Shown: piece after piece, positions 4,586-56,545 of the stretch
Position numbering within the stretch: position 1 is the stretch's first letter
Layout of the letters: every line of letters begins with the position of its first letter
Assembly (NCBI GenBank): GCA_024641125.1
Contig: JAHEDQ010000003.1
Coordinates: 1-56,545, forward strand
Length of the DNA: 56,545 bases
Source: Candidatus Competibacteraceae bacterium
Lineage (GTDB): Bacteria > Pseudomonadota > Gammaproteobacteria > Competibacterales > JAHEDQ01
Direction: 5' to 3'
Made by a program: the position numbers and the translations under genes
Notes under the pieces: model-generated
The model's input: the letters and a program-made list of their open reading frames with translations, nothing else
The model's database searches: none
What the model was told of the DNA's origin: nothing

Positions 4586-4754
4586 CTCCCTGGGGCGCCT
4601 CTGGTTTATTCTGGACGAATCAGATTGGAGGGTGAAATGTGCAGCTTCAAGGCGCAGATCGCAGGTCATAGTCGTTCTATTGCCAAGATCTGCAACGATG
4701 AAGCTGTGCATTTGAATCCCAAGGTGCAGGTTCATGAATAGATCAGAGGATCCC
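4586..4754 (-). mobile_element. MITE-like hairpin element, copy B (full length, inverted relative to copy A)
   Basis: Its reverse complement aligns end to end with copy A (GGGATCCTCTGATCTATTCATGAACCTGCACCTTGGGATTCAAATGCACAGCTTCATCGTTGCAGATCTTGGCAATAG...CACCCTCCAATCTGATTCGTCCAGAATAAACCAGAGGCGCCCCAGGG). One end overlaps the ParA stop codon (4754-4756). The other end lies 9 nt from the TPR gene ATG. Confidence 0.8.
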
Positions 4755-5404
4755 TAAATCGGGGCCAGTCCGGGATACAGATCCCGGGCGAGCGTATCGA
4801 ATTCCACCGCCGCTTTACTGCGCCGCGCCATTTCATACACCGCCAGACCCTCGCTGAGCGATCTGCGATAAACCGTCCGGTTGCAGAGCCGATGGGGCAG
4901 CAGATGGACCCCGCCCATCATGCCCAAGGCTTCCACTGTCTCATCGGATTCGCGAATCTGGCGATGGGTATCCGCTCGATTGACGAAAGCAAGCACTTCG
5001 ATCCGACGCCCGTCCGGCACCGCCTTGCGCACAATGCTGAGGAACCGCTGGGTCGCCCACACATCCGCCTGGCTCGGCGGAACCGGGATCACCACGCGAT
5101 CGGCAACCTCGATGGCCGACTGCATGGCCGCGATGTTTGCCGCCCCTACATCCACCAGAACCTCGCCGGCGAAGGCCTGGAGCTGTTTTCCGTTGACCTT
5201 GTGCAGTTGATGCACGGTCAGAGCAGGCTCGTGGCCATCCTCGCACCGTACCTGGTTGACATCGGTCAAAGTGCACTGGGGATCCAAGTCATAGGCGACC
5301 ACCGCTTCGGAATGCTGCGCCAGCCATACGCCAAGATTGAAAGCCAGCGTGCTCTTTCCAGACCCGCCCTTAAGATTGCCGATCACCGTGATCACGCCTT
5401 TCAA
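4754..5404 (-). CDS. orphan ParA/MinD-family P-loop ATPase
   Basis: 216-aa ORF. It has the deviant Walker A VIGNLKGGSGKST and overall ParA-like architecture. No parB or parS is recognisable nearby. Confidence 0.85.
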   Translation of the reverse strand: MKGVITVIGNLKGGSGKSTLAFNLGVWLAQHSEAVVAYDLDPQCTLTDVNQVRCEDGHEPALTVHQLHKVNGKQLQAFAGEVLVDVGAANIAAMQSAIEVADRVVIPVPPSQADVWATQRFLSIVRKAVPDGRRIEVLAFVNRADTHRQIRESDETVEALGMMGGVHLLPHRLCNRTVYRRSLSEGLAVYEMARRSKAAVEFDTLARDLYPGLAPI

Positions 5405-6414: not shown

Positions 6415-6867
6415 TTACTGGGCGGGCTGTGCCTGAGGCTGCGGCTGTTGCGGCGCGGGCGCACCGTATCCAGGCGGTGCATAACCCGGGGCCGGAGCGC
6501 CGTAGCCATAGCCGGGTGCACCATAACCGGGTGCACCATAACCATAGCCCGGGTAACCGTAACCAGGCGCACCATAGCCGTAGCCCGGATAGCCGTAGCC
6601 GGGGTAGCCGTAGCCGTAGCCCGGCTGGCCATAACCCCGACCGTAGCCGCTGCCGGTTCCGTGGCCGCTGAAGCCCATGTTGAAGCTGCCGTCGCCCATC
6701 ATGTCGCCCAGGCCGTTACCCCAGCCCGGACCACCCCAACCGGGTCCACCCCAGCCAGGACCGCCCCAGCCCGGACCGCCCCACTGAGCCTGGGCGGAGG
6801 ACAAGGGCAGGGCCATGGCGCCGGCAATCGCGGCGGCAAGAATCGCTTTCTTGAAATTGCTCATCAC
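6415..6867 (-). CDS. secreted Gly/Tyr/Pro repeat protein resembling sulfur-globule envelope proteins (Sgp-like)
   Basis: 150-aa ORF. Signal peptide [27 protein letters not shown], then (WGGPG)x4, then [27 protein letters not shown], then about 12 (P)GYGY(G/A)(A)P units. The composition and the GDG..FNM..SG.G.GSG.GRGYG block match my recollection of purple-sulfur-bacterial SgpA/SgpB. Confidence 0.7.
6721..6783 (-). repeat. four tandem 15-nt coding repeats (WGGPG) that differ only at synonymous positions
   Basis: The minus strand reads TGGGGCGGTCCGGGC TGGGGCGGTCCTGGC TGGGGTGGACCCGGT TGGGGTGGTCCGGGC TGG. All four units encode WGGPG. Confidence 0.9.
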
Positions 6868-39048: not shown

Positions 39049-39128
39049 GAGGCGCCTCTGATTTATTCGTGAAGGTGTATCTTGGGACTGAAATGCACAG
39101 CTTCGGCGTTGCCCGGCTTGGCCGCGAC
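39049..39128 (+). mobile_element. MITE-like element, copy C (left half only)
   Basis: GAGGCGCCTCTGATTTATTCGTGAAGGTGTATCTTGGGACTGAAATGCACAGCTTCGGCGTTGC... aligns with the left arm of copies A, B and D. Similarity then fades 6 nt before the fabR stop, and there is no right arm. Confidence 0.65.
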
Positions 39129-48849: not shown

Positions 48850-49227
48850 CTGCAATCCACTCGGGTCTGCGGGCGAGAATACATCAGAGCCGTCCAGGGC
48901 ACACGGTGGGGATTGGCCCAACCGTCTGAAAAAGCCGATCCACGGCTGCATGTCCTGCTCAATGTCATTGGCGATCCGGTTCGCCAGTTCCGGTCTGCAG
49001 ATGATCAAACCGGTCTCGAAATTCAGGTAGACAGAGCGAAGATTGAGATTGAATGACCCAGCGAAGACGCCCTAACTACCGTAGACGATCGACTTCGCAT
49101 TCAGACCAGTGAGCGTGTACCGTTCGCACCGAAATGGATGCCCATAAGCCGCAGGCTCGCCGCGGTATCGAATCGGAACTGACACAGTGCTACGCCACTC
49201 TCGAGCATTTTGCGACGACATCTGGCC
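48850..49227 (-). pseudogene. remnant of a phospholipase D / cardiolipin-synthase family gene (second HKD motif decayed)
   Basis: The minus strand reads ..YTLTGLNAKSIVYGS*GVFAGSFNLNLRSVYLNFETGLIICRPELANRIANDIEQDM.. This matches the family pattern LHAK..VVDG...VGS.NLD.RS..LN.E..L.I, but with His changed to Asn (49099-49101) and an in-frame TAG (49072-49074). Upstream residues need frameshifts. The 5' side is cut by MITE copy D. Confidence 0.55.
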
Positions 49228-49396
49228 CAGGGAACCTCTGTTCTGAAAGTGAAACTGCATCTTGGGCCGGAACTGCACAGCTTCATCGTTGCAGATCTTG
49301 GCAATAGAACAGCAATTACCCGCGATCTGCGCCTTGAATGTCCATATTTCACCCTCCAATCTGCTTCGCCCAGAAAAAAATCAGAGGCTCCCTGGG
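49228..49396 (+). mobile_element. MITE-like hairpin element, copy D (full length)
   Basis: CAGGGAACCTCTG...GCATCTTGGGCCGGAACTGCACAGCTTCATCGTTGCAGATCTTGGCAATAG...CGCGATCTGCGCCTTGAATG...TTTCACCCTCCAATCTGCTTCGCCCAG...ATCAGAGGCTCCCTGG. Confidence 0.8.
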
Positions 49397-51805: not shown

Positions 51806-52246
51806 TCAGCGGGTGAAATGCTGCTTCAGACGTTCCAGCTTCGCGTCGGTGACCGCCTCGCGCCGGGGATTTTTTCTGGACTTGCCGCGGCCGCCAACCG
51901 CCTTGGCCACCGTCTGCCGGGCGAGTTCCGCCTGATCGGCGGTTACCTCACCGTTTGGTTGTCCGTCCAGACTGACCCGCGCACCCCCGCCGGCCAAGGC
52001 CTTTTGATAAGCGATGCCCGAGGTATAGATACGCATCGCACCCGCGATGACGTGACGCGCCTCATCCGGGTAGCAGGCACGTATCTCCTCGTGTACGCCT
52101 ATGCTCAGGGGTACCGGATAGCGACCACCGCCCCGGGCGACAAACGCGTGCGGGTATGCTTCACACAATCGGGCGAGCAATTCCAGCGCCCGTTCCGTTT
52201 TGCGACTGCGCTTCTTCTCTGCATCATCCAAGGTGTTGCGCCCCAT
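51806..52246 (-). CDS. proQ: small FinO/ProQ-domain RNA-binding protein
   Basis: 146-aa ORF. ..ALELLARLCEAYPHAFV......PLSIGVHEEI...EARHVIAGAMRIYTSGIAYQKALAGGGARVSLDGQPNGEVT fits the ProQ/FinO N-terminal domain pattern, followed by a basic tail. Confidence 0.7.
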   Translation of the reverse strand: MGRNTLDDAEKKRSRKTERALELLARLCEAYPHAFVARGGGRYPVPLSIGVHEEIRACYPDEARHVIAGAMRIYTSGIAYQKALAGGGARVSLDGQPNGEVTADQAELARQTVAKAVGGRGKSRKNPRREAVTDAKLERLKQHFTR

Positions 52247-52324: not shown

Positions 52325-53740
52325 TTAGTGCATGACCTTTCCTGACGCTGCCGCAGCCTCGCCTGCCCGTCGAATCCGCTCGATCTCCTCAGACACGGGG
52401 AACAACCGCGTTCCGTAGAATCGCTCGGTCCCGCAGTTGATCGATTCTAAACGCAATTCGACCAGGCGCACCGAACCGTCGGCGCATATCTGGCGCCCAG
52501 CCAGGGCTTCAATTCCGCTACCGGGGTCAACTCGCGCGCTCAAGCGCTCCGACAGCGTTTGTACTGAGTGCTCGGTGTAATCGGTTAATTTCGTTCCGAC
52601 CAATTCCCGGAGCGATCGACCTACGGCCTGACAGGCTCTGGGATTGGCGTAAACCAGCGCCAGCCCCTCGACCTCGAATATCATAGTTTCCAGGTCAGTC
52701 TCCGCCATCAACCTTGCCAACTCTTCGCCGGCTCGAACCTGACCTTCCCACAACGTCAAATCCGATACCATGGCCACCGTGCCGATTACCCGGCGCTTTG
52801 CATCACGAAGCAGAGAAAGCGACAAATGTCCGCTGAATCGGTGCCGCGCGTGGTCAACCATGGGCAAAGTGGCTTCATACCAACCCTGCTTCCAGAGGTC
52901 ACGATACACCTCCCCGAGACGCGCTCGGACATTCAAATCGCTGGGATAGATCATGGATAAGTGCTGACCGATAGCGGCCTGGGCGGGCAGGCCGAACAGC
53001 CTTTGCGCGCCTTGATTCCAACTCACCACCCGCTCTTCCAGGTCGCAGACAATGACGGCGCTGTGAATCTGGTCGATGATCTGCGCCTGCTGCCGGGACA
53101 AATCGTCTCCCCGCAGCCGCGTCGTCATATCCCGAGCCTCAAACAGTACCAGCACGACCTCATCGTCCCTGTCGCGTATCGGTTTCAGCGACAAATCCAC
53201 GTGCGCAAGTTGACCATCCCGTCCACGGAGTTCCGCGGCAAACCGGGCCACTTGGCCCTTGACCGCGCCGCGCAGGGCCGTCTGCAACTGGTGTTGGGTA
53301 CGGTCAGAGCCGAACCACCAGTGGGTGCGCCAGAAAGGTCTGCCGACAACATCATCCTGTTCCAGGCCGGCGAAATCGAGCATGGTCTGATTGACCTCGA
53401 TCAAGTGCCCGTCCGGCGCCAGCAGGGCCATATGCTGGAATGCTGAATCAAACGTGGCATGGAATCGACGCTGGCTGTCCAACAAATCACTGTGCGCGTC
53501 CTGCAAGCGCCATGCGCGATGCCGTGCCTGCCTCAGGCGCACCATCGCGATCACCGACAACACCAGAACCACGCCCAGTCCAACAACCCACCATGGCCCC
53601 AGACGAACTGAAGCAAGATAAGCCTCGCCACCCGCCGGCGGCCGAACCAGTGCATACAAAAGACCACTGGCCGCCAGAAACAAAGCCAGAATCGTCAAAA
53701 GGAATAATGCGCCATCCAAGTGGCGGCCATTTTCATGCAT
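52325..53740 (-). CDS. membrane-anchored triple-PAS protein with no recognisable output domain
   Basis: 471-aa ORF with two N-terminal TM segments followed by three PAS-like units (..FHATFDSAFQHMALLAPDGHLIEVNQ.., ..IIDQIHSAVIVCDLEERVVSWNQGAQRLFG.., ..MIFEVEGLALVYANPRACQAVG..). It ends without a kinase, GGDEF or HTH domain. Confidence 0.7.
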   Translation of the reverse strand: MHENGRHLDGALFLLTILALFLAASGLLYALVRPPAGGEAYLASVRLGPWWVVGLGVVLVLSVIAMVRLRQARHRAWRLQDAHSDLLDSQRRFHATFDSAFQHMALLAPDGHLIEVNQTMLDFAGLEQDDVVGRPFWRTHWWFGSDRTQHQLQTALRGAVKGQVARFAAELRGRDGQLAHVDLSLKPIRDRDDEVVLVLFEARDMTTRLRGDDLSRQQAQIIDQIHSAVIVCDLEERVVSWNQGAQRLFGLPAQAAIGQHLSMIYPSDLNVRARLGEVYRDLWKQGWYEATLPMVDHARHRFSGHLSLSLLRDAKRRVIGTVAMVSDLTLWEGQVRAGEELARLMAETDLETMIFEVEGLALVYANPRACQAVGRSLRELVGTKLTDYTEHSVQTLSERLSARVDPGSGIEALAGRQICADGSVRLVELRLESINCGTERFYGTRLFPVSEEIERIRRAGEAAAASGKVMH

Positions 53741-53874
53741 CGGTCTGGCAGACTCCCGTTACGCTGGATCAGCCAAGATATCACTCTACACAGTTTACAA
53801 TTGGGCCCGCCGCCCATCCCGCTCGCGCCGAAGTTTGGATGATCTGGCGACCACAATATAGTCGTTGGGCCCTC

Positions 53875-54042
53875 AAGGGAGCCTCGGATCTATTCGTGAA
53901 CGTGCATCTTGGGATTGAAATGTGCAGATTCAAGGCGCAGATCCTGGGTAATAGTTGTTATATTACCGAGATTTGGAACGATGACGCTGTACGTGTCCCC
54001 CTCCAATCTGCTTCGCCCGGAATGAATCAGCGGCTCCCAAGG
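53875..54042 (+). mobile_element. MITE-like hairpin element, copy E (outer arms oriented as in copy A, central segment inverted)
   Basis: AAGGGAGCCTCGGATCTATTCGTGAACGTGCATCTTGGGATTGAAA | TGTGCAGATTCAAGGCGCAGATCCTGGGTAATAG..ATATTACCGAGATTTGGAACGATGACGCTGTACGTG | TCCCCCTCCAATCTGCTTCGCCCGGAATGAATCAGCGGCTCCCAAGG. Confidence 0.8.
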
Positions 54043-54245
54043 TAACATGACCTTGCGGACAAGAATGCGACTCGGGCCTAAACTGTGCAGCAGATGTATC
54101 TGTTGAGGCCGGCATCACGGCGACCTGTAGCCAAAGGCCCAACGCCGCTCAGTTCGTGCAAAGTATCCGCCGCGATCGCGCAATTGGCTCAGCGCTTAAG
54201 AAACGGACGCCACCCGAACACACTGCCCTGCTCCGACTGGGTTGT

Positions 54246-56318
54246 TTAGATCTGATCCATCATGCTCTGCTGTTCCTTAACCACGCCCGGATTGGACAGC
54301 AACCAGACCTTGAACTCAGCGCCGGCACCCACCCTGGAGTTCACGGTGAGGTTTCCGCCGTATCGTCTGATCAAGCCATAGCTGATGGACAAACCAAGGC
54401 CGGTGCCCTGTCCTTCCGGCTTGGTGGTATAGAACGGATCGAACAAACGCGAACACACACGGCTCGGGATGCCGGGACCGTTATCGCGAACGGAGATCAC
54501 GACGCCCCGGTCGCCCCAGTCCGCGGCGCTGATTTCGATCCTGCCCCGTCCATGTGAGACCGCGTGACAAGCATTGACCATCAGGTTCACCAGCACCTGC
54601 TGCAATTCCTGGCGGTTGATGGCAATCGTTCGCTCGGTCCGGATGGATGTGGTTACCTTGACTGATCCACGCTTTACGGCATGGGCCACCAATCCCAAGG
54701 TGTCCGTGATCACCTCATCGATGGACACGTCGTCGATGCAGCCCGCGTACTCCGCAGGCCGGGCGTATTGCAGCAGATTGTTGATGATCTCACGGATGCG
54801 ATAGACCTGGGCGACGATCAAGTCGACCTCTTCGGAAACCGGTTCGATGGCCGGCCCCAACTCCGACACCAGCAGATCGAGATTGCCCAAAATCACGGCC
54901 GTGGGATTGTTGATCTCGTGGGCCACGCCGGCAGTCAACTCACCGATGGCGGCAAGCTTCTCCGCCATCACCAGTTGCTGCCGGGTCTGCTGCAAAAGCG
55001 CCACGGTTCTTTCCAGATCGGCGTTTTTCTCACGCAGTTCGCGGGTGCGCTGATCCACCTTGAGTTCCAACTCATCTGCGGCACGCTGAATCTGCCGATT
55101 GCGCTGCTGAAGAAGGTCGAGCATGACATCGAACTCGCGGGCCAATTCCCCAATCTCATCGCGGGATGCCAGCTTGCCGATGCGTCTGTCCTCGCCCCCG
55201 CGGGTCGCCCGAACCACCGTGCTCATTTCCTCTATGGGGCGAAAAATTGACTTGGCGCCGTAGAAGGCAAGGGCCGCGGAAAACCCCATGAAGGCCAAAA
55301 AAATCAGCGATATCAATTGGATGGTTCGCACCAGGCTGGCCCGAAACGGAGCCTCCAGGAATCCAGCGTACAGCATGCCGACACGTTCGCCGACAACGTC
55401 ATAGATCGGCTCATAACCCGACACATACCAATCGTTCACCACAAAAGCGCGGTTGATCCAGCGATCCCCCTGCTCCAGGACCTGGGTTCGCACTTCCGCC
55501 GAAACGCGGGTACCCAAAGCCCGTTCCCCCGGTCGCACCGGCACGTTGGTTGTGATGCGAACGTCGTCCAGAAACACGGTCACGGTGCCGAGGCTGTCCT
55601 CGGGCAAACTGCCCGGCCCGTAGACCAGATCCCGTATGGTGTCGACAATGGAGAAGTTGCTGTTCAGCAGCACCGCACCGTCCAACAGCGCGACCACGCG
55701 CCCACCAATGTCGGCGAGCGGATAAACCATGCGCATGGCCATCGCCCGATCCTCAAACGATCGCTGTATAGGCGTGGCCCTGGGCGTTTCCACAAGGGGA
55801 AGACGAACCATTGCGGCGAGTTCCGATGCGATGCCTGCCAGTTCATCGGGCCCGAACACCTGAATGCCGCTGACTGCCTCACCTGTTAGGGCGCGAGTAA
55901 GCTCACCGGGCAGATGAATCCCGCCGGCAAAATTCCGTTCCGGCGCACTCAGGTCTAAGCCGTCGAGATCCACCATGCGCAGATAAGCGAAACCGTGATT
56001 GCGGGCCAGATCATCGAGTTGGGCCTGTATCGCCCTGGTATCGCGATCAGCGAGATTGGAGCGAAAAAGATACGATTCACCAACACCGGCGAGGGTCGCC
56101 AAATAGTCCGCTCGGATTCGCGCGAACACGTCCTGAGCTACCGCAAGATCCGTGGCCACCTTGATGAACAACTGGTCGTATGTGGCTCTATCACTCCAGT
56201 AGACCGCCAAGCCAAGGGTGACGGGCATCACCAGCAGTATCGGAAACAAAACGAGCAGCAGAAGCTTGTAACGCAGGCTCCGCTCAACCCGGGCCACCAG
56301 GGGGAATCCCTTCAGCAT
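54246..56318 (-). CDS. sensor histidine kinase (periplasmic Cache-like domain, HAMP, HisKA, HATPase)
   Basis: The track ORF extends to 56456. The ATG at 56318 lies 17 nt after the upstream stop and gives MLKGFPLVARVERSLRYKLLLLVLFPILLV. H-box GVAHEINNPTAVILGN; G-boxes DNGPGI and GTGLGLSISYG. Confidence 0.85.
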   Translation of the reverse strand: MLKGFPLVARVERSLRYKLLLLVLFPILLVMPVTLGLAVYWSDRATYDQLFIKVATDLAVAQDVFARIRADYLATLAGVGESYLFRSNLADRDTRAIQAQLDDLARNHGFAYLRMVDLDGLDLSAPERNFAGGIHLPGELTRALTGEAVSGIQVFGPDELAGIASELAAMVRLPLVETPRATPIQRSFEDRAMAMRMVYPLADIGGRVVALLDGAVLLNSNFSIVDTIRDLVYGPGSLPEDSLGTVTVFLDDVRITTNVPVRPGERALGTRVSAEVRTQVLEQGDRWINRAFVVNDWYVSGYEPIYDVVGERVGMLYAGFLEAPFRASLVRTIQLISLIFLAFMGFSAALAFYGAKSIFRPIEEMSTVVRATRGGEDRRIGKLASRDEIGELAREFDVMLDLLQQRNRQIQRAADELELKVDQRTRELREKNADLERTVALLQQTRQQLVMAEKLAAIGELTAGVAHEINNPTAVILGNLDLLVSELGPAIEPVSEEVDLIVAQVYRIREIINNLLQYARPAEYAGCIDDVSIDEVITDTLGLVAHAVKRGSVKVTTSIRTERTIAINRQELQQVLVNLMVNACHAVSHGRGRIEISAADWGDRGVVISVRDNGPGIPSRVCSRLFDPFYTTKPEGQGTGLGLSISYGLIRRYGGNLTVNSRVGAGAEFKVWLLSNPGVVKEQQSMMDQI

Positions 56319-56337
56319 GGGTATGCCTGCAGACGCT

Positions 56338-56545
56338 TCAGGCAGTCCCGGTGTTCTCGAGACGCCAGGTCTTGAGTTTGCGGTCCAGCGTCTTGCGGGA
56401 AACCTCAAGACGCTGCGCGGCGCGGGATTTATTCCCGGAGCAACCATCCAGCACATGGAGAATGTAATGCTTTTCCACCTGTTGCAGCGTCATATCATCG
56501 CTGAACATGAGGCCAGACCGGTCCGATACTGCGGTCCGCATGTCC
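56338..56545 (-). CDS. sigma54-dependent (NtrC-family) response regulator; C-terminal Fis-type HTH only, 5' end off the window
   Basis: ..LQQVEKHYILHVLDGCSGNKSRAAQRLEVSRKTLDRKLK.. is the HTH_8 tail of NtrC-type activators. It lies directly upstream of the kinase. Confidence 0.7.
   Translation of the reverse strand, partial: DMRTAVSDRSGLMFSDDMTLQQVEKHYILHVLDGCSGNKSRAAQRLEVSRKTLDRKLKTWRLENTGTA

Follow-up and report, generated by a model that had tools for sequence, protein, structure and literature searches.

In-place inversion of the core in one copy of a dispersed quasi-palindromic repeat of a sediment gammaproteobacterium, likely by template switching

We analyzed a stretch of 56,545 nucleotides (contig JAHEDQ010000003.1 of assembly GCA_024641125.1, Candidatus Competibacteraceae bacterium; hereafter the window), which originates from a sediment metagenome. 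The window carries five copies, designated A to E, of a dispersed, intergenic, quasi-palindromic repeat that measures approximately 166 bp per full copy and contains no open reading frame (ORF). In copy E (53876–54042, + strand), both outer arms are in the orientation typical of the family, and the core between them is inverted. That the core is inverted in place relative to its own arms is confirmed by repeat searches, by alignments in both orientations, and by site-by-site mapping. We consider it likely that this core results from a rare, single in-place inversion between short inverted repeats of a quasi-palindromic repeat resembling a MITE (miniature inverted-repeat transposable element), the route likely being a double template switch, and that the product is a stably inherited mutation.

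The repeat is an imperfect palindrome over its whole length, and each copy corresponds to a long imperfect hairpin consisting of an outer stem and an inner stem-loop. The terminal inverted repeat is (T)AGGGAGCCTCTGATCTATTC ... GAATAAATCAGAGGCTCC(C/T)TA, the outer stem is GTGCATCTTGGGAYTGAAA ... TTTCACCCTCCAATCTGC, and the inner stem-loop, which is 73 nt long, is TGCACAGCTTCATCGTTGCAGATCTTGGCAATAG-AACAA-CTATTACCCGCGATCTGCGCCTTGAAKCTGCACA. The orientation of a copy can be read from its sequence because the two halves, with one reverse-complemented, are only approximately 65% alike. The majority arrangement is referred to as flop and that of copy E as flip. Copies A (2168–2337, +), B (4593–4756, −), and D (49226–49396, +) are full-length flop copies, the left terminus of D being degenerate. 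Copy C (39051–39112, +) is truncated and retains only the left arm and the beginning of the inner left arm.

The repeat search places the parts of copy E on opposite strands of copy B. The center of E (53916–53990) and the + strand of copy B at 4633–4707 form a direct repeat (84%), and the right arm of E (53982–54042) is an inverted repeat of 4589–4649 in the same copy (79%). The left arm of E is in direct orientation with copies A, C, and D. A first-pass annotation, made from the sequence alone, had described the inner part of E as inverted between normally oriented arms, with its core collinear with the + strand of copy B and its arms opposite, and both descriptions hold. Global alignment of the 73-nt core gives the same result. 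When the core of E is reverse-complemented, 58/73, 59/73, and 58/73 positions are identical to those of A, B, and D, respectively, versus 47/69, 47/71, and 45/69 in the same orientation. The cores of A, B, and D match each other at 60–64 of 73 positions in the forward orientation and at 46–47 when one is reversed. The first-pass annotation had named a better match of the unreversed core as the finding that would speak against an inversion; computed in both orientations, the unreversed match is the poorer one, and this objection falls. The core is 73 nt long in E as it is in A, B, and D, indicating that the inverted block kept its length.

Mapping of individual sites agrees with the alignments. 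Orientation-distinguishing sites were defined as positions where the consensus of 36 non-redundant copies differs from its own reverse complement. In the arms of E, approximately 23 of 24 such sites are of the forward type and one is of the reverse type. In the center, 32 of 38 are of the reverse type and six of the forward type, and the center forms one contiguous block. All 47 other unique copies have at most eight reverse-type sites each, and these are scattered. The core of E diverges from the consensus by approximately 13%, about as much as the right arm of E does. The variants of E regarded as private include CCTGGG, ATATTACCGAG, and TTTGGAAC.

The inverted block covers at least 53923–53990 (68 bp) and at most 53916–53998 (83 bp), and is thus shorter than the 85–90 bp originally proposed. 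The left outer arm (53876–53915, +), which comprises the terminal inverted repeat and the GTGCATCTTGGGAT stem, has all its distinguishing sites in the forward state, is matched exactly by the left-arm probe, and is detected by nhmmer at 53876–53920. Going rightward, arm-type sites stop at 53915 and those of the inverted type start at 53923, which places the left switch interval at the heptamer TGAAATG (53916–53922, +). This heptamer is common to the left arm and the reverse complement of the right arm, and the strand-switch joints of other copies aligned to E cluster at 53913–53923. The inverted core (53923–53990, +) is the inner imperfect hairpin, with two 34-nt arms and the loop TTGTT; it reads as the reverse complement of the family arrangement and is matched by the nhmmer core probe on the − strand. 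The right switch interval (53991–53998, +) is bounded by the last inverted-type site, 53990, and the first arm-type sites, 53999–54000. Beyond it, the right outer arm (CCCTCCAATCTGCTTCG ... GAATCAGCGGCTCCC; 53999–54042, +) carries forward-type sites and is matched by the right-arm probe and, on the + strand, by the nhmmer right-arm search. The flip junctions at locus E read GGGATTGAAATGTGCAGATTCAAGG and GACGCTGTACGTGTCCCCCTCC. In the consensus, the left junction, GAAATG(CA)CAGCTTCA, and the reverse complement of the right one, GAAATG(TG)CAGCTTCA, differ only in the pair in parentheses. The perfect inverted repeat at the junctions is 7 nt long, or 16 nt if the 2-nt mismatch is allowed. The proposal that the switch points fall in GAAATG(T/C)(G/A)CA stands in part: the left one lies in TGAAATG, whereas the pyrimidine–purine (YR) dinucleotide is already inside the inverted block, and the motif on the right is not clean (CGTGTCC).

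The flip at locus E is real DNA. For comparison, we used Logan contigs of metagenome runs (labeled X1–X9) rather than raw reads. Contigs of X1, X2, and X3 reproduce E from 53892 to 54224 and beyond, through the core into the unique right flank, with no mismatches. In X5, which belongs to a different study, a read-length contig of 151 nt (53869–54019) spans both junctions, also with no mismatches. The same flip sequence is thus present at locus E in four runs of two studies, dated 2021 and 2024, and is the majority state there in all four runs.

The frequency of the flip was assessed with a census probe built from the outer arms only, CTTGGG-N78-92-CCCTCCAATCTGNTT, which is insensitive to core orientation. 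GTDB representative genomes and Joint Genome Institute (JGI) metagenome contigs were scanned, and the loci examined (approximately 700 kb) were searched by BLAST and nhmmer, using one probe each for the left arm, the core, and the right arm. The 83 element matches reduce to 37 non-redundant full copies, of which 36 are flop and one, copy E, is flip. These copies come from the window, one related gammaproteobacterial metagenome-assembled genome (MAG), and JGI sediment metagenomes. Nearly all genuine matches are from the long-read MAG "uncultured Gammaproteobacteria bacterium MFD03804.bin.1.279" (CAWAOU01) and from sediment contigs Ga03161xx, which largely duplicate loci of that MAG. Aside from the repeat itself, megablast detects next to no similarity between this MAG and the window; the family is therefore common to different species of one lineage. 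The repeat is abundant, with more than 30 family copies in one MAG and a depth in the metagenomes of approximately 700 versus approximately 5 for the flanking unique sequence (approximately 140-fold). The census pattern also matched, by chance, MAGs of unrelated organisms (Coriobacteriaceae, Odoribacter, Patescibacteria, and others); these lack the repeat and were discarded.

The census bears on the earlier comparison of the repeat with the flip/flop termini of hairpin-replicating elements. Under 1:1 isomerization, the probability of finding one flip or fewer among 37 copies is approximately 3e-10, and the comparison is not supported. The contigs are in line with this count. When the flip copy E is taken as the reference, 8–13 kinds of opposite-strand joint per run are seen at 53913–53923 and 53988–54001; these are flop copies. 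When the flop copy B is taken as the reference, no strand-switch joint is found in X1, X3, X7, and X8 (104–284 contigs each), in a test that is blind to flips whose core is less than 85% like that of B, the core of E itself being 84% like it. One X7 contig of 298 nt should be noted. It is collinear with E at 53887–53959, with 10 mismatches in 73, and its upstream flank is different even at an 80% threshold. This contig, the sequence of which was not readable, may come from another locus or another organism; it represents a second copy of the flip type, or else one in which the left inner arm has been homogenized to the right one.

A companion to copy E is found within the same family, at L009:5746–5943 (−). 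Its left inner arm is normal, and the inner part reads GCAGATCTTGGCAATAG-TTATT-CTATTGCCAAGATCTGC. The right inner arm, CTATTGCCAAGATCTGC, is the exact complement of the left inner arm and replaces the usual CTATTACCCGCGATCTGC, giving a perfect 17-bp stem. The family loop is AACAA, with the variant AATAA in L018, and the L009 loop is the reverse complement of AATAA. A single event accounts for the 5-nt loop change, four substitutions, and a 1-nt deletion. This copy is a classic template-switch product, with arm homogenization and loop inversion. Intermolecular template switching between imperfect inverted repeats is reported to produce arm homogenization and spacer inversion (PMC8604942), and loop inversions of this kind occur in RNA hairpins, including bacterial ones (PMC8794818).

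Copy E can be explained as an L009-type product with switch points further out. In E or its progenitor, a single event would have inverted the inner stem-loop in place, with breakpoints in the short inverted repeat TGAAATG ... CATTTCA that divides the outer from the inner stem. A nascent strand ending in TGAAATG, formed during replication or repair, would anneal to CATTTCA on a strand of like polarity, either in the sister duplex or in the folded template. It would then copy the inner hairpin backwards and, on reaching the second heptamer, resume synthesis on the original template. An alternative route, reciprocal recombination of the two arms that carry the heptamer, would give the same product and is indistinguishable here. 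The earlier suggestion that the arms of a hairpin or cruciform recombined, or that synthesis switched template between them, is supported by the conserved length of the block, its consensus boundaries TGAAATG/CATTTCA, and the L009 companion. We infer both this mechanism and the flop as the ancestral state at locus E. A single crossover between copies in the wrong palindromic register was also considered as a route; it predicts a left arm, a flipped core, and a reverse-complemented left arm, and was rejected as E has a genuine right arm.

Other explanations of copy E deserve consideration beside this template-switch inversion. The core may have been acquired by ectopic templated conversion from another family copy, in the opposite orientation or in the wrong palindromic register, and not from its own opposite strand, which is a variant of the same mechanism. 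Donors are plentiful (the community contains over 100 copy-equivalents of the family), the heptamer could supply the microhomology here too, and neither the six forward-type sites nor the divergence of the core reveals the donor. However, no donor with E-like core variants was found, the other contigs matching 53916–53990 differing at 10–16 positions. The core has also diverged about as far as the right arm, in keeping with a single old copy whose parts evolved together, and a nearby template in cis is kinetically favored in published models (PMC8604942). We regard an ectopic donor as unlikely, though it keeps some weight. A nested origin, in which the 73-bp inner hairpin would be a small mobile unit of its own, inserted into an element made of outer arms only and lying reversed in E, receives some support from core-less contigs that join approximately 53914–53926 to approximately 53999–54001 (73–84 nt skipped) and from equivalent skips on copy B. 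Deletions, to which long palindromes are prone, explain such forms equally well, however, and no free-standing inner module occurs in the approximately 700 kb of loci. The outer stem runs on into the inner module with no target duplication, and a single orientation in 36 of 37 copies is unexpected from independent insertions, so that a nested origin is very unlikely. One candidate for a solo inner module, L049:9435–9504, turned out to be an old, diverged full flop copy.

Active isomerization of the repeat, either as flip/flop through a hairpin or cruciform intermediate in the manner of a parvovirus inverted terminal repeat (ITR) or a poxvirus telomere, or as site-specific inversion by a recombinase (inverton), would produce the same geometry, with an asymmetric interior inverted between paired stems. 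The L009 product and the possible second flip-type contig in X7 suggest that hairpin-related rearrangements recur. Contrarily, the ratio of 1/37 instead of approximately 1:1 largely refutes active switching, locus E is flip in four runs of two studies, and no strand-switch joints are seen on the flop reference. The element is chromosomal and internal, and the perfect flanking inverted repeat is only 7 nt long and is now destroyed on the right side of E. No Rep, HUH, nickase, resolvase, recombinase, or transposase domain is present in the six neighboring ORFs scanned between 48176 and 56456. Active isomerization is accordingly even less probable than a nested insertion, and the idea of a hairpin as a routine intermediate or processing form of the element is not supported. 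Least credible of all is an assembly artifact, in which the palindromic repeat was assembled from the metagenome the wrong way round. A metagenomic window with an abundant, palindromic repeat is indeed the setting for misassembly, but the X1, X2, and X3 contigs and the X5 contig over both junctions match without mismatch, and mis-traversal of the assembly graph cannot create the flip because the junction inverted repeat of 7 nt is far below the assembler word size.

Several observations weigh against a single, clean inversion by template switching at locus E. The right switch interval reads ACGTGTCC, whereas the consensus is ACATTTCA; the expected CATTTCA is now CGTGTCC, with three substitutions in seven positions, and positions 53993, 53995, and 53998 of E fit neither orientation. 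This junction calls for an added assumption, either subsequent mutation or a return switch that was imprecise. The six forward-type sites within the inverted block, such as CT in GATCCTGGG and A in TATTACC, suggest either that the inversion was not a perfectly clean copy or that E has since drifted or been partly homogenized. As the comparison rests on contigs, a minority flop form at locus E is possible. No flop ortholog of the locus was recovered, the relatives in X7, X8, and X9 being diverged or unassembled in that intergenic region, and the polarity of the event is for this reason taken from the family majority. In view of the X7 contig, there may be further loci with flip-type copies, arising either from repeated inversion or from the transposition of a copy already flipped.

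The predicted RNA structures of the repeat confirm the flip independently. Among the flop copies, in 36 of 36 the RNA strand complementary to the left-to-right reading is more stable than the other by 11–32 kcal/mol (mean 23.5), with 7–8 G:U pairs on the stable strand versus 2–3 on the other. E is the only copy with nearly equal strands (−60.8 and −56.5 kcal/mol), as expected if the wobble-rich core is now on the other strand, and computational un-flipping of its core restores the asymmetry (−48.5 and −67.2 kcal/mol). In the consensus copy, the calculated energies are −75 and −95 kcal/mol, and both become −85 kcal/mol after a flip; the flip would turn a one-strand hairpin into a two-strand hairpin. 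The RNAalifold consensus of the stable strand has 68 one-sided, pair-keeping changes, mostly to G:U, versus five A:C breaks, counts that come from related copies and are not independent. A single mutational bias does not explain the pair-keeping changes, because A>G and C>U both contribute. The folding calculations point to a constraint at the RNA level on one strand of the repeat family, and suggest that E is an impaired copy, not a functional isomer.

A broader possibility is that the repeat is an RNA element absent from Rfam, whose nested hairpin modules keep their pairing on one strand only and are recurrently re-oriented or perfected by hairpin- or cruciform-mediated template switching; we regard this as a speculative, rather improbable proposal. 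The orientation of copies relative to neighboring genes, obtained from crude gene calls based on GC content at third codon positions (13 same/same, 6 opposite/opposite, and 12 mixed), is too weak to use. In the metatranscriptomes of the same samples, three low-depth contigs without strand information were found in one of three runs, giving no evidence for or against transcription.

The repeat family has several features of a MITE. It is short (below 300 bp), has no ORF, carries the terminal inverted repeats (T)AGGGAGCCTCTGATC ... GATCAGAGGCTCC(C/T)TA, and is present in many dispersed copies. The dinucleotide TA adjoins most left and right ends, which suggests that the repeat may duplicate a TA target. 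Head-to-tail dimers occur at L065:8232–8605 and L067:1934–2307, and also at L069:5057–5329; in these dimers the adjoining termini overlap in CCCTAGGG (terminal CTAG). A TA-targeting MITE of the IS630/Tc1-like kind is, on these terminal features, the likely identity of the family. A search for empty insertion sites with flank pairs, allowing up to three errors, found none among the approximately 700 kb of loci. No cognate autonomous element with the same termini was seen in the loci examined, for which no dedicated search was made. Rfam gave no match at the gathering score on the whole window and none at E ≤ 1 on copy B, and copy B had no match among the PLSDB plasmids (blastn, distant mode).

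Structural variants of the repeat are also present. In one subfamily, 12–13 nt of the right inner arm are duplicated in tandem, ...GCGATCTGCCCCGCG(A/T)TCCGCCCCTTGAA..., and the element is thereby extended to approximately 178 bp. Its members are L006:7117–7317, L012:6632–6836, L016:1439–1637, L023:2591–2800, L024:2054–2255, L027:2413–2563, and the second unit of L065. In a variant of the left terminus, an extra block, TAGGGAGTCCATACCATCTGATC, replaces TAGGGAGCCTCTGATC (L025:5773–5970, L040, L052:11636–11829, and L064, with loose ends in X5 and X6). Core-less variants, in which the outer arms are joined directly with 73–87 nt skipped, are found in several runs as contigs aligned to 53914–54001 and 4629–4725, and one such contig is from a metatranscriptome.

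Copy E lies inside the 56.5-kb chromosome-like contig and not at a replicon end. As with the other copies, whose neighbors are ordinary chromosomal genes, it adjoins a Cache-HAMP histidine kinase gene (54246–56456, −) and a PAS-domain gene (52325–53740, −), for whose protein an exact-match search returned no record. Directly downstream of the latter is a gene for a ProQ/FinO-family RNA chaperone (51806–52246, −; Pfam PF04352, E = 2.9e-17). Elsewhere in the window, at 6491–6638, a unit rich in GCCGTAGCC/ATAGCC occurs four times in tandem with a period of 36 nt; the units probably encode a Gly/Tyr-rich repeat in a coding region of the opposite strand.

Copy E is a new instance of a known mutational process, unusually large and clean. 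A block of 70–80 bp that appears to consist of many substitutions is one event, and this matters for aligning, dating, and classifying repeats. Taken together, E and L009 indicate in vivo hairpin or cruciform formation by this repeat family. Should flip-type copies (E, the X7 contig) be retained or even mobilized, they would provide a natural case of cruciform extrusion and template switching at work in vivo on a mobile repeat with RNA structure. Arguably the more interesting object is the family of strand-asymmetric RNA hairpins itself, which has no match in Rfam or in the plasmid collection searched. Its calculated one-strand stability (approximately 23 kcal/mol, kept by G:U-compatible changes) suggests a role at the RNA level, for which copy E would be a natural core-flipped mutant.

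Bacterial MITE-like palindromic repeats that act as RNA hairpins include ERIC/RU-1, YPAL/RU-2 (167–168 bp), and Correia/NEMIS. The present repeat resembles them in length, long terminal inverted repeats, a whole-length imperfect hairpin, an intergenic and dispersed distribution, TA at both ends of most copies, dimers sharing CTAG, and an RNA stability that differs between strands. It differs from them in its host, an uncultured sediment gammaproteobacterium, and in showing no sequence similarity in the Rfam or plasmid search. With the ITRs of parvoviruses, including adeno-associated virus (AAV), and with poxvirus telomeres, the family shares an asymmetric palindrome interior that occurs in two orientations relative to the outer stem. 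Flip and flop in those viruses arise at the ends of linear replicons by hairpin transfer in every replication round, are approximately equimolar, and need a nickase or resolvase; copy E has neither the terminal position nor the equimolar forms, and no nickase or resolvase is encoded in the six ORFs scanned nearby. An inverton has an adjacent invertase or tyrosine recombinase, flanking inverted repeats of approximately 10–30 bp, and both orientations in the population. Unlike an inverton, copy E has no recombinase domain in the six scanned neighbors, a perfect inverted repeat of 7 nt, and one orientation in the contigs of four runs.

Minute inversions at hairpins in chloroplast non-coding DNA, reportedly described by Kelchner and Wendel in 1996 and in later work on trnH-psbA, are likewise small, sporadic, and homoplasious inversions of a loop or interior flanked by stem-forming inverted repeats. 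They recur frequently between close relatives, whereas here, in a different type of genome, the flip is found once in 37 copies and is stable across samples. The comparison with template-switch mutations (the Ripley model; PMC8604942; PMC8794818; Escherichia coli quasipalindrome assays, PMC7202029) shows differences: in the publications consulted, the inverted loop or spacer measures 2–8 nt, whereas the spacer in E is 68–83 bp and is itself an imperfect hairpin; in E, the perfect microhomology is only 7 nt, and the ancestral state of the locus is deduced from the family. Copy E shares with such mutations that a segment between the short inverted repeats of the family consensus is reversed in place with its length conserved, many changes stem from one event, and a homogenized sister product, L009, is found in the same family.

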